A stretch of DNA of 64,000 nt from an uncultured delta proteobacterium (GTDB taxonomy: Bacteria; Desulfobacterota; Binatia; UBA9968), in contig CAVTUQ010000028.1 of NCBI GenBank assembly GCA_963737905.1, forward strand, positions 32,001 through 96,000, given 5' to 3'. Made by a program: the position numbers and the translations under genes. Numbering within the stretch: the first letter of the stretch is position 1; every line of letters starts with the position of its first letter. Of the stretch, positions 8,965 to 15,677 are shown one piece after another. Below the pieces are notes generated by a model, which was not told the DNA's origin, ran no database searches, and saw nothing but the letters and a program-made list of their open reading frames with translations.

Positions 8965-10362
8965 TTACCGGGCCCCTTTACCCAATAAAACAACTTTCAA
9001 GCTTTCAAATATGATCTGCAAATCGAACAGTAACGACATATTTTTCATGTAGTAGAGATCGTACTGCAGTTTCTCTATCGCATCCTCCTCACTGTCCCCG
9101 TACGAATAACAAATCTGAGCCCAGCCGGTGATTCCAGGCTTAATTGAATGGCGTAGAGAATAGTAAGGAATCTTCTTGGTCAACGTCTGGACGAAAAATG
9201 CCCTCTCAGGTCTGGGTCCGACCAAACTCATTTGGCCCTTTAAGACGTTGATCATCTGTGGAATCTCATCGATTCGCAGTTTTCGGATGAGTTTTCCGAC
9301 TCGGGTTACCCTCGGATCATCCTCTGCGGCCCAGACCGGGCCAAGGTTAGCTTCCGCGCTTTCAAACATTGAGCGAAATTTATAGATTGTAAACGTTTCA
9401 TCGTTCTGTCCCACTCTTTCCTGCCGATAGAATATGGGGCCCGGACTATCTAATTTAATCGCCAGCGAGGTTAGTAAGGTGATTGGGGCGCTCAACAACA
9501 ATCCAACCGCCGATACCCCTATATCGACTGCCCTTTTTGTGAACATGATCAACCGATCACGCCGAAACCCCTTACATCGGACAATCCACTCCGGAGAAAG
9601 GTCAGCAATCGCAATCTTGCTCACCAATCTCTCGTAAAAAGAGTGGCAGTCTTCCATCGCAACTCCGCGGGTACGTAATGTGACGAGTTCCTGACTGAGG
9701 ACATCACTGCAATCCTCCACCCCAGCAAGCAGAATGCGGTTAACGTTTTTTTTGTTGAACAAATCCATCAACGACGAGGGTTGATAGACCGGCAAGGATA
9801 CCCGGACGGGATTTCCGTAGGAAAGGGTCAGTTGGCCGGTAGACTGGCCAACAAACCCAACGACTTCCATACCCAGCTTCTTTTGCCTAAGTAGCTCTTC
9901 CGCGACCAACTTACCAATGGCCTGCAGCCCAACCACCAACACCCTACCGTGTATCCGCGCCCTTTCGATGACTCGCATCAACCCGACTCGCCAAGCGCAA
10001 AGGCTTATCACCATCAGGGTCATTTGACTGGCATAAAGCGTTTTACCGAATCGCGGTATTGGATAGCTGACGATAGCGATTAGAATACAGGCGATTCCGG
10101 CCCCACTCATCAAACGGAGAAATAGCTCCCGAACGGATAGGGTTTGGTCTATGGCATAAAGATCAGAATAATAGAACGACACGACCACAATAATAGTTAC
10201 CGCTACGGCTTGAGAAAACCAAAAACCCCATTCAGGATTGGGCGAAATTTCGAGCAAAGAAATTCCCGCACGAACAGCCACCGTCGCCAAAAAAATCACG
10301 ACGACGTCACCCAGGAGGAGAATGAGATCGTAAACGGAAAAGTACCGATTGAATACACGCAT
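8965..10362 (-). CDS. Priming polyprenyl-phosphate sugar transferase (PEP-CTERM/EPS type)
   Basis: N-terminal TM helices; C-terminal KFRSM, DDPRVTRVG, DEIPQ, GPRPER and KPGITGWAQ motifs. Confidence 0.92.
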   Translation of the reverse strand: MRVFNRYFSVYDLILLLGDVVVIFLATVAVRAGISLLEISPNPEWGFWFSQAVAVTIIVVVSFYYSDLYAIDQTLSVRELFLRLMSGAGIACILIAIVSYPIPRFGKTLYASQMTLMVISLCAWRVGLMRVIERARIHGRVLVVGLQAIGKLVAEELLRQKKLGMEVVGFVGQSTGQLTLSYGNPVRVSLPVYQPSSLMDLFNKKNVNRILLAGVEDCSDVLSQELVTLRTRGVAMEDCHSFYERLVSKIAIADLSPEWIVRCKGFRRDRLIMFTKRAVDIGVSAVGLLLSAPITLLTSLAIKLDSPGPIFYRQERVGQNDETFTIYKFRSMFESAEANLGPVWAAEDDPRVTRVGKLIRKLRIDEIPQMINVLKGQMSLVGPRPERAFFVQTLTKKIPYYSLRHSIKPGITGWAQICYSYGDSEEDAIEKLQYDLYYMKNMSLLFDLQIIFESLKVVLLGKGAR

Positions 10363-10368
10363 CGGTGA

Positions 10369-11319
10369 TTAGGAGTCGTTGGTCGAGTAATAGTAATACT
10401 TTGAAGAGATGCCGAGGTCCGCTCCGTTCAACACGACGCCCATAACTTTGTTGGAATTTAGAGACTGCAGCGCTTTCGTCAAATAATCACGGGGCGTTTT
10501 GCCCGCTCGCATCACCAACAAAACCCCATCGACATAACGGGCGATCACCAACGGGTCAGGCGTCGATAGTATCGGAGGGCTATCGATAATGATGTGATAG
10601 CCAGGGAACTCGGCCTGAGCTTCTTCCATGACCTGCCTCATTCTTTCTTTAGCTAAAAGTTCGGACGCGAGGCGCGATGGTTTCCCTGAAGGCAAAATGC
10701 TTAACCCCGGGACAAAGGTCTCCTGTACCATATCCTTGAGCTTCATTTTCGAGTTGGCGGCAAGATAATCGGCGAGTCCCGGTGATGCGAGCACATTAAA
10801 ATATCGATGGATACTCGGAGCCCGAAGGTCACCATCGATAAGAAGAACCTTCTCCTCATAATCCAAGGATAGGGCGGCTGCCAAATTGACGGCGACGGTT
10901 GTCTTGCCATCTCTCTTAATTGGGCTGCTTACGGAAAAACTCCTAATCCCGGATTCGGCACGCAATCGTTTGACTTGCTCGCGCAGCATTTTATATTGTT
11001 CCGACGCTGGAGATTCCGTTTCTAAAGCGACGATCGGATAACTGCTATAGCGTTGCAGGTTCCATCCAAGAAGCCACTGTTCAATTCTCTCGTGCCACGA
11101 TTTGTCAGTGTTCGTGACCGCCGGATATAATTCATGAGTGTCACGGAAGGCACCGTTGGTCTTACTGATCGTACCGTTTGAGTATGGTTCGCGGGTTGAT
11201 CCTTTTTCTTCGATGAGCATCTCCCCAGTGACATTGCTTTCGACCTTTTCCATCGGCCGTTGGACCTGCCCGTGCTTTTCTTCACCCGCTCTTGCCAATG
11301 CTTCGAACACTCTACTCAT
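10369..11319 (-). CDS. CpsD/CapB-family tyrosine autokinase (Wzc C-terminal module)
   Basis: DGKTT Walker A, LLIDGDLR, IIIDSPP and C-terminal YYYY cluster. Confidence 0.92.
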   Translation of the reverse strand: MSRVFEALARAGEEKHGQVQRPMEKVESNVTGEMLIEEKGSTREPYSNGTISKTNGAFRDTHELYPAVTNTDKSWHERIEQWLLGWNLQRYSSYPIVALETESPASEQYKMLREQVKRLRAESGIRSFSVSSPIKRDGKTTVAVNLAAALSLDYEEKVLLIDGDLRAPSIHRYFNVLASPGLADYLAANSKMKLKDMVQETFVPGLSILPSGKPSRLASELLAKERMRQVMEEAQAEFPGYHIIIDSPPILSTPDPLVIARYVDGVLLVMRAGKTPRDYLTKALQSLNSNKVMGVVLNGADLGISSKYYYYSTNDS

Positions 11320-11360
11320 GCTTTAATCACTCCTAAAAAAGGCGCTGAAACTTTGTTTGT

Positions 11361-11448
11361 CTGCTTAAAAAGATCTCAGAGGCGAGGCGCATCAAAACTC
11401 GATGAACGGAGGCGTGCTTAACCGATACGTTGTAGCGAGGCGATTGAG
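11361..11448 (+). repeat. Left half of a short intergenic repeat (MITE/REP-like) split by the IS
   Basis: CTGCTTAAAAAGATCTCAGAGGCGAGGCGC...AGCGAGGCGATTGAG. Its start is imperfectly complementary to the end of the right half (TCTCTTTCAGCA, about 12873-12884). Confidence 0.65.
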
Positions 11449-11529
11449 ACTTGTATGATGGATGTCGGTCCTCACGCGAGTGCTCTGGTACAATGGTTCA
11501 AATAATAGCGTTGTCGAAGAGGCACTTAG

Positions 11530-12676
11530 ATGAGAGACAAGACGTTTATAAGGATTATGGTGTGTTTGCGGATTGGATGTAGATAAGAAGAGTATCGCGG
11601 AACGTTTACAGTCAGCAAGGATTCATCGGTGTTGCAAATGCGTATGGAGTGGATCATTTGCTGAATCATGTGCGCAAGCACTTTGCGGATCAGAAGATTG
11701 CTTTGTCTATGAGGCTGGACCCACGGGGTACGGGTTGTATGATGGGCTTGCGGCTGAAGGTTATAGGTGCTTGATCGCCGCTCCATCGATGATTCCAGAG
11801 CTCCAGGACAGAGAGTGAAAACCAATCGACTCGACAGTCGAGCGTTGTCGGAGAGTTTGCGTGGGGGACAGCTCAAAAGCATTCATGTTCCCTCCCAATT
11901 TATCGCGAGCTTCGCCACCTCACTCAACTGCGCGACACGACGGTACGCCAGGCGGCCGCTCACAAGCAGCGCATCAAAGCCCTGTTGTTGCTCGAAGGCA
12001 TCGACTTTCCCCCAGCTCCTGCTGGCAGACAGTGGACATTGAGGGTGAAGGCTCAGTTGAGAAAGCTTCAGTGTTCTCATACGTGCGTTTTAAGCTCGAT
12101 CAGTTGCTCGACAATTTGGAATTTTGTGAAAAGCAGGTGGTGAGCAGTACGAAAGAGATTCGCCGCTTTTGTAAAGAGGATGCGGAACTGTTGCAGTCCA
12201 TTGAGTACCTGATGAGCATCTCGGGTATCGGCTGGATTGTGGCGAGCCAGCTTCTGGCGCGCATTGGAGACTGGCGGCAAATCGACAATGTCCGACAACT
12301 GGGTAGCTTTCTGGGTTTGGTGCCTACCGAGAACTCCACGGGTGATACGGTCGATCGAGGATCGATTACCCGTGTGGGAGACGGCCGGCTTCGAAGCAAG
12401 ATGATTCAGGCGGCATGGTCGGCGATCCGCCAAGACGCAGAGCTTAGAGAGTTTTATCGTTCGGTTTGCCAGAGAAACCCACGCGGCAAAGGCCCGCGGA
12501 TCGCGATCGTGGCGGTGGCGCGAAAACTGAGTACACGGGTTTATGCGGTATTGAAACATCAAAGACCGTACATCGTTCGAGAACAGGTTCATTCGGCTCC
12601 TTTGACCCAAGAGGAGACATCGCCCCAGGGAACGACTCGACGTTGCGCAGAACCGGGAGAGATTAACAACTCCTGA
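11530..12676 (+). pseudogene. IS110-family transposase, frameshifted into several pieces
   Basis: LDVDKK, YEAGPTG, KTNRLDS, SISGIG, LGLVPTENSTG and AVARKL spread over ORFs 11573-11818, 11767-12042 and 11861-12676. The shifts may be read errors. Confidence 0.85.
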
Positions 12677-12830
12677 AGGTTCGCGATTTGAGACAGAGAA
12701 CCCGGGGCCTTGTGCCTTAGAGAGGGCGTATTGCAAAAAAGTGTGACGGCCTGGGTGCTGTGCCACGTATAGCAGCAAGTGTCTCTTTGGTCGGGGAGTA
12801 AAAGAGTATAAGAAAAAGAGGACTCGTATG
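12620..12830 (+). ncRNA. Predicted seekRNA/bridge RNA of the IS1111-type element
   Basis: Two stem-flanked internal loops with short matches to the target flanks (12641-12648, 12683-12692) and to the predicted donor junction (12776-12780, 12808-12813). Boundaries are approximate. Confidence 0.7.
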
Positions 12831-12852
12831 TTTGCGACTTGACATCCACATA

Positions 12853-12890
12853 AGCGCAACGAAGCATATGAGTCTCTTTCAGCATCCTGT
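12853..12890 (+). repeat. Right half of the IS-interrupted intergenic repeat
   Basis: AGCGCAACGAAGCATATGAGTCTCTTTCAGCATCCTG joins the left half to give GCGATTGAGCGCAAC. Confidence 0.65.
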
Positions 12891-12894
12891 TAGT

Positions 12895-14133
12895 TTAGGA
12901 GGCTTGCAGTGTCCTGATTTCTTCAAGCATCTGGTGCCGGAAATACGCACGCATTCCTTCGTCTAAGATCTCGCGGCTTACCGATTCAAGAAGCATATCG
13001 ACCTTTGCGTGCGGGAACCGCTCAAAGGATTCGCCCAGGGTTTTGATTTGATCGCGCAGCACGATCTTGGCCATCGGACCCATAGCGTCTGTGAGAGCTA
13101 CAGCCAAAGCATTTAAGAAACTGGCTGGTACAAACACTGTGGAAGGAATAGTCCTGGGAACCGGTTTCGCGTTGGGCGGTTTTGGCTCTAACCGCGCTAT
13201 CCCTGGTCGGGCTTCTGCTGCTGATGCCACGCTAGATCCCTGCACCGCGCCAACACCTTTCGGGTTGTTAATGACTTGGCGAATCGGCCTCAGGCGCATC
13301 TCGACGTTGCTTGTTATATTCAGATCCTCTGCCACTTCCCGTATGATCCCGGTGTCAATTTCCTTCTTCCCTAACGCATAACCCGTCAGCAATGCGTTGT
13401 CGCACAGCACGTTCACGATGCGGGGGATTCCATTGGAATAGGAGTGAATACTTTCTAAGGCGTTGGGCGTAAAAATAGGTCGGTCTCCACCAGCAACCTT
13501 TAGGCGACTGGACACGTACTCACAGCACTCCGGTAGCGATAAAGTCCGTAAATGATGACGCAACATCACTCGTTGTTTGAGTTGGCGCAATTCAGGCGAG
13601 TTAAGACGTACCGCTAACTCAGGCTGCCCAACCAATAGTATTTGCAACAGCTTATCCTTGGAAGTCTCAAAGTTAGATAATAGCCGGATACTTTCTAAAA
13701 CCTCGGCCGAAAGGTTCTGTGACTCATCGATAATGAGCGCGCAATTCTCCCCTTTTCGATAACTTTCAAGAAGAAATTCATTTAAAGAAACTAGGTAATC
13801 ATGGATCTCTAAAGGAGGGCGTTTCGGTTCTATGAGGCCGAACTCTTCACAGACGGACCGAAGCAGGTCCGCAGGGCTAACGATGGTGCTAAAGAGAAGC
13901 GCTGTTTGAGCGCTTCCGTTAAGATCGTTCAACAACGCGTGAATCAGCGTGGTTTTCCCTGTTCCCACTTCTCCAGTCAGAACCACAAAACCCTTCCTGG
14001 CTCTAATTCCGTACGAAAGCTGCGCTAACCCCTCGCGGTGACTCGCGCTAAGGTACAGAAAGCTCGGATCAGGCGTGATATTAAAAGGGGCCTGAGTGAG
14101 CCCAAAATGCGTTTGATATAATAGATGATCCAT
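12895..14133 (-). CDS. ExeA/GspA-family AAA ATPase (PEP-CTERM locus type) with extra C-terminal helical domain
   Basis: PFNITPDP, GEVGTGKT, IIDESQNL, LVGQPEL, QLKQR and GIPRIVN motifs; start taken at MDHLLY. Confidence 0.9.
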   Translation of the reverse strand: MDHLLYQTHFGLTQAPFNITPDPSFLYLSASHREGLAQLSYGIRARKGFVVLTGEVGTGKTTLIHALLNDLNGSAQTALLFSTIVSPADLLRSVCEEFGLIEPKRPPLEIHDYLVSLNEFLLESYRKGENCALIIDESQNLSAEVLESIRLLSNFETSKDKLLQILLVGQPELAVRLNSPELRQLKQRVMLRHHLRTLSLPECCEYVSSRLKVAGGDRPIFTPNALESIHSYSNGIPRIVNVLCDNALLTGYALGKKEIDTGIIREVAEDLNITSNVEMRLRPIRQVINNPKGVGAVQGSSVASAAEARPGIARLEPKPPNAKPVPRTIPSTVFVPASFLNALAVALTDAMGPMAKIVLRDQIKTLGESFERFPHAKVDMLLESVSREILDEGMRAYFRHQMLEEIRTLQAS

Positions 14134-14150
14134 TGGTTTTGCTATCTTTC

Positions 14151-15677
14151 TTAAAAAGAAATGGGACCCAAAATTCGGATACAAATGACTCCGACAGCCA
14201 GTGTTGCGATGGAAGCCAGCACAAGGAGACCATGAGCCCGCCGTTGTTCCAAGACACTGCCCCGCGTTACTAGCGCAGGAATCGTCGCGAGCAAGGGCAC
14301 ATCGACATAGGTATTGATTTCCTCACTCCTTCGAAAAGACGAGTCCATGCTATCCCACAAAATAGCCGACCCAATCCCTCCAGCCAAACCTGCTATAAAT
14401 CCCATCAAAACAATCAAAAGGCGGTTCGGTCGAGTGGGGTTAACTGGGAAATTTGCGGGATCGAGAATCTGGAACTGCTCACCTTTTTGTTTCTTTTCCA
14501 TATTCTCCGCCAGCTCAGATTCAAGACCTTTAGCTAATAAATCCTGATATTTTTTTAGCGTTATGTCGTAGCCGCGGCTAATTTTGGAAAGTTCTAAGGC
14601 ACGAACAGGAGTACTATCAACACGAGCCTGTAGCAGGCTGATCTGACTCCGAATCCCCTCGCTCTGGGCATGAAGAGCTTTGATCTCGGAATCAATGTCT
14701 GTGATTTGCGTCTGCAAAACCCGCTTGACAGGATTAATCTGAGAGACTTTTGACGGATTGGGTTGACTCGAGATTGTATCGTAGCTGTCATTTTCTAGTG
14801 CTTGGATTTCCTTCTTCGCTCTAATCACATCCGGATGCTTGTTGCTATATCTTTGCAGCAGGGACTCTAGTTCCTTTTTCTTCATTTCAAGCTGAACACT
14901 TTGGGGCACGGTATTTACAGCAATGGAGAGCGGACCACCGGTCGAATCTAACTTCACAATGTCGGCTTCTACGTTTTGTTTTTGCAGGACAGCTCGACGT
15001 TCCTGAAGGGCCGATAGCCGCTGGCTATTGCCCTCCAGCGCACGTCGAAGTTGCTCCAAACTCCGCAGGTTTGTATCAAGTTGATCCGGTAACTCGTAAC
15101 CATGAGCGGCCTTGTATCTTGTTACCACCGCCTCTTGCGCTTCCAATTCCTTTCGCAGCCTCTCAGTCTCCGCATTGATGAAAGACTTGGTTCCCTGTGC
15201 CTGCTGTTCCCTGGCGTTTAGATTTTGTTCGATAAATAACGATCCGAGCCGACTTGTCACCTGCTTCGCCTTTTCAGGGTCTTCAGATTCGAACGATAAC
15301 TGAAATACATTGTTTCGGCGGGACTCGATCCGGATGGATTTGCGCAGGAGATTGATTCGAGCTTCTAAAGTAACTACCTTTTGATAGAGATTAAACTCTT
15401 GAATGATTTTTTCCAGTTGAGTTCTGCTCATTATCTCCTGAGTAATGGACTGCATGCGTTCGCGAAGATCAATGGTTACTGTGGAAGCGACAAAAGAGGT
15501 GGGCACGCGCTGCGGGGTAACAAGGATAAGTGCACTTGACTGATAGACGTTCGGCAGGACGCTTGCCAGATATCCGGCTAACGATGATACTACAACGAAG
15601 ACGGATATGATCAATCCTTTCCTTCGATTAAGGGTATTTAGTATTTTGGAAATATCAAAATCCGCAACTACGTTCAT
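14151..15677 (-). CDS. Polysaccharide chain-length determinant (Wzz/GumC-like Wzc membrane module)
   Basis: N-terminal TM, long coiled coil, YSNKHPDV, FQILDPA and C-terminal TM helices. Confidence 0.9.
   Translation of the reverse strand: MNVVADFDISKILNTLNRRKGLIISVFVVVSSLAGYLASVLPNVYQSSALILVTPQRVPTSFVASTVTIDLRERMQSITQEIMSRTQLEKIIQEFNLYQKVVTLEARINLLRKSIRIESRRNNVFQLSFESEDPEKAKQVTSRLGSLFIEQNLNAREQQAQGTKSFINAETERLRKELEAQEAVVTRYKAAHGYELPDQLDTNLRSLEQLRRALEGNSQRLSALQERRAVLQKQNVEADIVKLDSTGGPLSIAVNTVPQSVQLEMKKKELESLLQRYSNKHPDVIRAKKEIQALENDSYDTISSQPNPSKVSQINPVKRVLQTQITDIDSEIKALHAQSEGIRSQISLLQARVDSTPVRALELSKISRGYDITLKKYQDLLAKGLESELAENMEKKQKGEQFQILDPANFPVNPTRPNRLLIVLMGFIAGLAGGIGSAILWDSMDSSFRRSEEINTYVDVPLLATIPALVTRGSVLEQRRAHGLLVLASIATLAVGVICIRILGPISF

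Follow-up and report, generated by a model that had tools for sequence, protein, structure and literature searches.

Does an insertion sequence whose transposase gene has decayed still carry, in its tail, the address of the site in which it lies? The question is raised by a 64,000-nucleotide stretch of an uncultured delta proteobacterium (Desulfobacterota, Binatia; contig CAVTUQ010000028.1, positions 32,001 to 96,000), here called the window and numbered from its first letter. A preliminary description of this DNA had proposed that the end of a transposase reading frame overlaps a seekRNA or bridge RNA whose guides match the element's own insertion site. In our judgment window positions 11449-12852 are very probably a dead copy of an IS1111-group (IS110-family) element lodged in a repeated intergenic element, with a tail that is a seekRNA/bridge RNA gene bearing two target guides. 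The central proposal, that the two guides match the element's own insertion site and covary with the targets of its relatives over a fixed scaffold, is well supported by sequence comparison. The mechanism has been known since 2024, and the locus is a well-supported, ordinary further example of it.

Insertion site, guides and their targets

The borders follow from comparison with relatives and with empty sites. The alignment with all relatives opens at 11445 (TGAG/ACTTGTATGATGG..., the slash marking the border) and closes at 12852 (...GACTTGACATCCACATA), and the extent of this similarity defines a plus-strand IS1111-type insertion sequence body of 1404 bp (11449-12852), as compared with 1424-1450 bp in the relatives. 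The left junction reads GCGATTGAG/ACTTG (11440-53) and the right junction CACATA/AGCGCAACG (12847-61). What lies outside rejoins to the target named in the preliminary description, GCGATTG-AG-CGCAACG, composed of a left half (11440-46), an AG found at both ends of the element (11447-11448 and 12853-54) and a right half (12855-61). This 16-mer recurs in the same genome in 5 exact and 8 one-mismatch copies, and at up to 3 mismatches there are 157 matches, against 66 for a reversed control. At 16-mer loci with a single AG, the right flank aligns in 9 of 10 cases and the whole 60-nt left flank in 7 of 10. A single AG in the empty copies, against one at either border of the occupied site, identifies AG as the shared core, and the empty-site test shows a site-specific insertion without duplication beyond that core. 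One contig from an RNA library links 11446 directly to 12853, with 2 letters that fit either side. A whole-element DNA search found the element as a single copy in its own genome. The target itself belongs to a family of intergenic repeats of about 100 bp in this genome, seen in the window as 11375-11448 plus 12853-12893 and elsewhere at loci L071-L078 and L080; the left half of the repeat (11375-11446), whose last 7 nt are the left target half, aligns with empty copies from the same genome, and two empty target loci gave no Rfam match at E values up to 1.

Two segments of the plus strand of the tail match this site. The T guide, CGTTGCGC (12641-12648), is complementary to the top strand of the core G plus right flank (12854-61) at 8 of 8 positions, and the B guide, GCGATTTGAG (12683-12692), has the same sense as the left flank plus core (11440-48) and fits it at 9 of 9 positions if one U is bulged. 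Could such resemblances arise by chance, with no guiding function behind them? The matches are short (8 and 9 nt) and were picked by eye from a 250-nt tail, and taken singly they are not rare: when the 253-nt tail was shuffled 20000 times, an 8-nt reverse-complement match to the core plus 12 nt of right flank came up 236 times and a 9-nt left match with one bulge 195 times. Both matches occurred together in 1 shuffle of the 20000, and this result, joined to the covariation set out next, leaves chance refuted as an explanation.

Covariation could be assessed because the tail scaffold is widespread, at no fewer than 156 loci, reduced to at least 142 unique records, from related genomes and metagenome contigs; at least 120 of the stretches carrying it are metagenomic. 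The related-locus search of genome contigs gave 2 loci only, and family-wide DNA searches were far richer: the whole element matched 14 of 61 related genomes and the tail 24 of 90 same-family genomes, the genome of the window (G000) being counted in both. At 114 sites with 37 distinct T guides, the T guide matched its own flank at 8 of 8 positions in 50 cases and at 7 of 8 in another 35 (85 at 7 of 8 or better). The mean match was 6.96, shuffled pairings averaged 4.80 with a maximum of 5.2, and none of 5000 shuffles reached the observed value. The same was true per guide class, of which there are 37 (6.73 versus 4.63, 0 of 5000); the six variable letters taken by themselves gave 4.81 versus 2.94, and the result also held when three unpublished genomes were set aside. 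For the B guide, the model with a bulge scored 6.48 of 9 at 89 sites, against 5.68 in shuffles, and again none of 5000 reached the observed value. The preliminary description had named as fatal to its case the outcome that homologues at other targets keep identical guides. The comparison shows otherwise: their guides differ, and they follow the flanks.

Two departures from plain pairing emerge from the same comparisons. The first is the bulge. What the preliminary description had recorded as one extra T in the B guide is indeed present, but it is no flaw: it is a conserved bulge, and a B-guide model lacking it was rejected, having scored 5.26 of 9 against 6.48 for the bulge model at the same 89 sites. 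Between the window and a relative about 90% identical to it (L034), two guide changes are paired with two flank changes, and the bulged T is kept. Among relatives, the four core-adjacent letters of B guide and flank covary (AGAG with AGAG 5 times, CGAG with CGAG 2, GGAG with GGAG 2, GCAG with GCAG 1). The second departure is a sliding register. A single fixed T register was discarded, since it fails at 15 of the 60 well-matched sites of an 83-site set; the T guide was therefore scored in the better of registers 0 and +1, and shuffles were scored alike. In that set the register goes with the last guide base (alignment columns 40-47): guides ending in C pair from the core G (45 sites) and those ending in G from the base after the core (11 sites), with four exceptions.

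Most relatives occupy a different but similar repeat, in which the insertion lies in the loop of a palindrome (...CCTGAG/C..GTCGAAGG...). Empty copies of this palindromic repeat numbered 23, 128, 56, 74 and 7 in the five genomes searched, with 0-2 for controls. Some genomes carry the element repeatedly: in G086 there are 5 copies, and in G065 5 matches, of which 4 are complete and have a T guide that fits exactly or nearly so. In G065 one locus (L061, contig C27, about 131988-132362) shows a full copy followed by a partial 3' half of the tail and a second right end, a tandem partial duplication. The guide/target pair of the window itself, which the preliminary description took to be a new natural pair, was not found in the literature searched; a contig from a metagenome (L133) does have the same pair, which is therefore new to that literature but not unique to the genome of the window.

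Transposase, scaffold and a possible mechanism

Assignment to the IS1111 group was made with the help of intact relatives, since the frame of the window copy is broken. The transposase pseudogene (11531-12676, plus strand) is split into at least 5 pieces, along a visible frame path of 2>0>2>1>0>2; its C-terminal frame matches PF02371 (E 3.8e-23), and this is the sole detectable domain, the N-terminal part being frameshifted. Intact relatives encode a protein of 355-385 aa, counted from the likely start codon, and on contig L144 an element of the window type has 411 aa of open frame. One of them (L040) matches PF01548 (E 1.7e-14) and PF02371 (E 1.5e-21), that is, a DEDD RuvC-like domain and Transposase_20, and scores 218 bits against NF033542, the IS110 family RNA-guided transposase (cut-off 140); the solved relatives of the intact protein are the ISCro4 and IS621 transposases. 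A GL-P----S/TG motif in the C-terminal domain marks the IS1111 group (PMC11187229). The translated frame of the window reads GLVPTENSTG, which fits this motif, and relatives carry the motif too. A long non-coding region lies downstream of the transposase gene, as expected of the group, with the tail (12602-12852) partly overlapping the end of the open reading frame (ORF). Subterminal inverted repeats, 11-13 bp in IS1111 elements, are likewise present: the left one is TATGATGGATGTC (11454-11466), and 12 of its positions agree with the reverse complement of the right one (12841-52), the left arm being longer by one base. Group members have extensions of 7 nt on the left and usually 3 on the right; here the left extension comes to 7 with AG included, and the right is 2 (GC) in relatives and 0 in the window. 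Domains, tail position and guide order thus agree with the preliminary assignment of an IS1111-type seekRNA/bridge RNA downstream of a transposase.

A phylum-wide protein search matched 10 of 301 genomes, that of the window included, and beyond the family no match exceeded 37% identity, which is too distant for the same scaffold. The genome of the window has four intact IS110-family genes (C33:30952-32049, C25:70423-71511, C37:85150-86238 and C10:17216-18370), two of which score equally, and two broken ones, on C26 and C19; to the element of the window all of them are distant relatives only. As partners for the RNA of the window the four intact genes were rejected, being 23-29% identical and without the scaffold.

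The tail combines an almost invariant scaffold with two variable blocks, and the variable blocks are the two guide segments. The conserved structured part, a candidate long seekRNA, spans 12602-12787 on the plus strand and is nearly invariant in 20 relatives. From about 12602 even third codon positions are conserved, while the coding DNA just upstream varies, which indicates constraint on the nucleic acid and not on the protein. The preliminary description had the target loop overlapping the last codons of the transposase ORF, and so it does: the frame extends to 12676, through the T guide. In relatives the final residues, or the stop, are dictated by letters of the guide, and in L040 the guide itself makes the stop codon. 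As to structure, the consensus fold and the minimum free energy (MFE) fold of the window agree on a closing stem (12609-18 with 12779-87), an 87-nt target-binding module (12622-12708), two small hairpins and an unpaired stretch before the closing stem. The module is predicted to consist of an outer stem (GCCCCAGGG, 12622-30, with CCCGGGGC, 12701-08), an internal loop bearing the guides, and a hairpin between them (12650-59 with 12670-82). All of the pairing elements listed in the preliminary description were found where it placed them, the GAACC/GGTTC arms at 12650-54 and 12678-82 and the outer stem and guides as given above.

How might such a tail work? Were the element alive, its excision as a circle would bring TTGACA of the right end (12839-44, a -35-like hexamer overlapping the right inverted repeat) together with TATGAT of the left end (a -10-like hexamer that opens the left inverted repeat), forming a promoter; the distance between the hexamers across the circle junction would be 17 nt in relatives and 15 nt in the window. 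This junction promoter would transcribe the transposase gene together with the tail, and the tail would then be cut out and bound by the transposase. The T guide would pair with the top strand at core G plus right flank, and the B guide, with its one bulged U, with the bottom strand at left flank plus core; together they would select a matching site, with recombination at AG. The borders, empty sites and guide/flank covariation are matters of observation, while the guide acting as RNA, its processing, the junction promoter and catalysis are what we infer by analogy. For the IS110 family, junction promoters, co-transcription of transposase and guide, processing and binding by the transposase have all been published (PMC11187229, PMC12288879).

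A rather different kind of guide is known from the IS200/IS605 elements, where the guide sequences are subterminal DNA that pairs with the target. Could the matching blocks here likewise act as DNA? All of the evidence in this analysis is DNA sequence, and covariation cannot separate RNA from single-stranded DNA. However, three observations make a DNA guide very unlikely. Intact relatives encode a transposase of the DEDD IS110 family, members of which co-purify with, and need, RNA from the non-coding region (PMC11187229, PMC11208160). In three stems, G-U pairs fit one strand alone, the plus strand (54-74, GU 13 and AU 7; 113-130, UG 18; 117-126, UG 15). Finally, the guides lie some 160-210 nt inside the element and not in terminal hairpins.

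Against an RNA guide gene at this locus stand several points that should be taken together. Two registers, 0 or +1, have to be allowed for the T guide; its match is 6 of 8 or poorer at 29 of the 114 sites; and some insertions misfit their own guides (L127, L017). In the main repeat group, with the window type set aside, an early set of 18 sites gave no significant covariation for the B guide (1520 of 20000 shuffles reached the value), because the left flank hardly varies there. As the relatives share descent, the shuffle counts make the sites seem more independent than they are. Compensatory changes were seen in 0 of the 43 pairs predicted by the consensus fold, since both sides of the stems are nearly invariant; as scaffold conservation comes without compensatory change, the fold is an argument from energy and conservation only, and the energy of the window fold is only mildly better than that of shuffles (z -1.8; 8 of 200 fold as well). 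Rfam 15 gave no match within 11300-13000 at E up to 10, nor in an intact relative at E up to 1. The nearest transposases found in the assembly, which is 87% complete, are 23-29% identical, and the window copy is broken. Lastly, no RNA was observed. In four metatranscriptome runs contigs of relatives span parts of the transposase gene, 12579-12662 and 12730-12866, and further contigs represent empty target repeats; such Logan contigs cannot show transcript, strand or ends, gaps in their cover carry no meaning, and the libraries may contain DNA.

Donor ends, mini-elements and decay

A guide RNA of this kind should also read the ends of its own element, and here the preliminary description has fared less well. 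It had proposed a second loop in which CAAGT (12776-80) and ATAAGA (12808-13) flank a CTCTTT/AAAGAG stem (12783-88 and 12801-06) and read the predicted circle junction; the strings are all present at these positions, and for this loop a fit beyond chance is not confirmed. Such a layout would mirror the target loop, with the same T-then-B arrangement. The CAAGT(C) half has support, being conserved and complementary to core G plus ACTTG, and in the window CATA-AG-A fits the junction exactly; moreover, 49 of 102 relatives have a hairpin with GTCATAAGA after it, where the 3' donor stretch of the RNA would be GUCAUAAGA. The exact fit is, however, a product of the window's own 2-bp deletion. The junction CATA-AG-ACTTG is unique to this copy, and 94 of 102 relatives end in CACATAGC-AG, so that CATAAG fits them only with a 2-nt bulge in the DNA. 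The proposed 3' donor guide, ATAAGA, is unsupported among relatives more generally: GTCATA[AG]G occurs in 49 of 102 and is missing from the other 53, including the five-copy element of G086, and mini-elements of 262-264 bp at three different sites do without the whole second-loop stretch. The stem is no better off, as an AAAGAG-type arm is found in 28 of 102 relatives only, the five-copy element of G086 not among them, and in the consensus fold the CTCTCTT arm pairs with the invariant upstream AAGAGGAGAC. The full two-loop picture is therefore improbable, although better placed than a DNA guide.

We would look instead to a stretch of the predicted multiloop (12768-12781, plus strand), in which AT[AG]GCAG is found in 97 of 102 relatives and is kept in mini-elements. 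There AUAGCAG (CAUAGCAG), unpaired and directly 5' of CAAGTC, is identical to right end plus core; in the window, TATAGCAG has the sense of right end plus core, and CAAGTG (consensus CAAGTC) complements core G plus ACTTG. The commonest variant of the AT[AG]GCAG stretch is compatible with wobble pairing. As a test of donor reading, relatives offer little, because their ends hardly vary: in L023 the same letter is changed in the RNA and in the right end, a paired change, while three elements with GTAG ends keep GCAG in the RNA, an unpaired one. About half of the relatives (52 of 102) keep the CAAG letters. Where the left end reads ACCTG, ACTCG or ACTTA, changes in these letters go with it, but they were compensatory in no register tried. 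Donor-binding letters in a multiloop have been described for many IS1111 orthologues (PMC11208160). On balance the conserved CAUAGCAG-CAAGUC multiloop stretch is a likelier reader of the donor ends than a second hairpin loop, and we put that reading at about even odds.

The mini-elements lack a transposase gene and consist of the left end, the guide-RNA tail and the right end. Their internal deletion junctions are identical, and their sites differ. Three measure 262-264 bp (L046, L192 and L225), L116 is 316 bp and L023 is 314 bp; four more (L068, L197, L207 and L214) are cut by contig ends. In L046, L116 and L192 the T guide CGAGAGCC lies beside ...AG/GCTCTCG and matches it at 8 of 8 positions; the T match of L225 is 7 of 8, and L023, with a different T guide, matches at 7 of 8 in register +1. 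From their sequences these look like non-autonomous elements that bear their own guide, and a limited literature search found no earlier description of guide-bearing mini-elements. One can go further and suppose that the 262-316-bp forms are self-targeting RNA-guided elements moved in trans. They would then make up a natural deletion series suggesting a minimal RNA that ends just past the closing stem, with donor reading by CAUAGCAG-CAAGUC, a fixed B bulge and a sliding T register. This composite proposal is tentative, and we rate it slightly below an even chance.

The window copy is a wreck. Alignment with five relatives at 87-90% identity (L133, L144, L146, L163 and L034) shows 22 bases missing from it, in 14 events, and none added. 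Nine of the 14 deletions fall in the ORF, and none of the nine is a multiple of three; of the remainder, one takes CA from the GTCATAAGA stretch (after 12807) and another takes the right-end GC. The closing stem has one G-G mismatch. There are 38 private substitutions, 19 of them C>T (11) or G>A (8), and the deletions private to this copy took 13 bases, 10 of them C on the plus strand and often the first C of CCG, with no private insertions. The four neighboring ORFs are intact. Lesions with such a bias could reflect either genuine decay or an error in assembling a repeat. Taken at face value, nine frameshifting deletions, the 2-bp loss at the right end and the changes in the donor stretch mean that this copy is unable to move itself, and with no near transposase found in the assembly, the RNA gene would be a relic whose guides still read their own site. 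The long ORFs to either side of the element (8965-11319 and 12895-15677) are both intact and on the minus strand; by eye, the flanking genes are presumably part of a polysaccharide-export/synthesis cluster, with sugar transferase-like, P-loop ATPase-like and chain-length-determinant-like members.

Relation to known systems

The closest published counterparts are the seekRNAs of ISEc11, ISKpn4, ISPa11 and ISPst6 (Siddiquee et al. 2024, PMC11187229), which likewise come from the non-coding region downstream of the transposase gene. Published short seekRNAs are 82-96 nt long, and in IS1111 seekRNAs the complement to the top strand lies 5' of the match to the bottom strand, the two overlapping at the insertion point (PMC11187229). 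The element described here is alike in having a short module with two matches (87 nt), T before B, that overlap at the insertion point, in its subterminal inverted repeats and 7-nt left extension, and in showing no duplication beyond the core and natural reprogramming among relatives. It differs from the systems in that report in its hosts, which are soil metagenome-assembled genomes with one relative labelled Pyrinomonadaceae; in its target, a host repeat; in a right extension of 2 nt and not the usual 3; and, as far as the published text goes, in the conserved one-base bulge of the B guide, the two T registers and an ORF tail that runs through the T guide.

Similarity to the IS621 bridge RNA system (Durrant et al. 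2024, PMC11208160; 8wt6) lies in the recombinase, a DEDD domain plus Transposase_20 (phmmer E 2.7e-11 to 8wt6), and in guides for both strands around a 2-nt core. Discontiguous guide pairing also has a precedent there, with 9 nt of RNA on 7 nt of donor. In that account, however, the IS621 RNA is in the left end, upstream of the transposase gene, and has two simple internal loops, with its guides in the reverse order, whereas here the RNA is in the right end and the donor-like letters are in a multiloop. ISPpu9 and ISPpu10 of Pseudomonas putida (PMC12288879) resemble the present element as IS110-family members that insert into repetitive extragenic palindromes, with recombination at an invariant AG. 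Unlike it, they are described as IS110-group elements with the bridge RNA upstream, and their separate ssr9 modules are not guide RNA, while the mini-elements found here carry the guide RNA itself.

How much of this is new must be judged modestly. Bridge RNAs have been predicted in 93% of catalogued IS1111 elements (PMC11208160), and the element or its fold could already be catalogued among the published seekRNA folds, in Extended Data Fig. 10c of PMC11208160 or in ISfinder. Within a limited literature search, the mini-elements with their own guide are modestly new, and so are the bulge and the sliding register. For the genome of the window the result is one of annotation only: one dead insertion sequence in an intergenic repeat. 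For the family, it adds a naturally reprogrammed series of IS1111-type guides and targets from soil bacteria, with 37 T-guide and 33 B-guide variants set against real sites. It also shows two deviations from simple pairing that are tolerated: the B guide has a fixed bulge of one base, and the T guide may be shifted by one base in its register. The mini-elements, in turn, are a natural map of the dispensable parts of the tail, and all of these may offer hints for the engineering of seekRNA and bridge recombinases.

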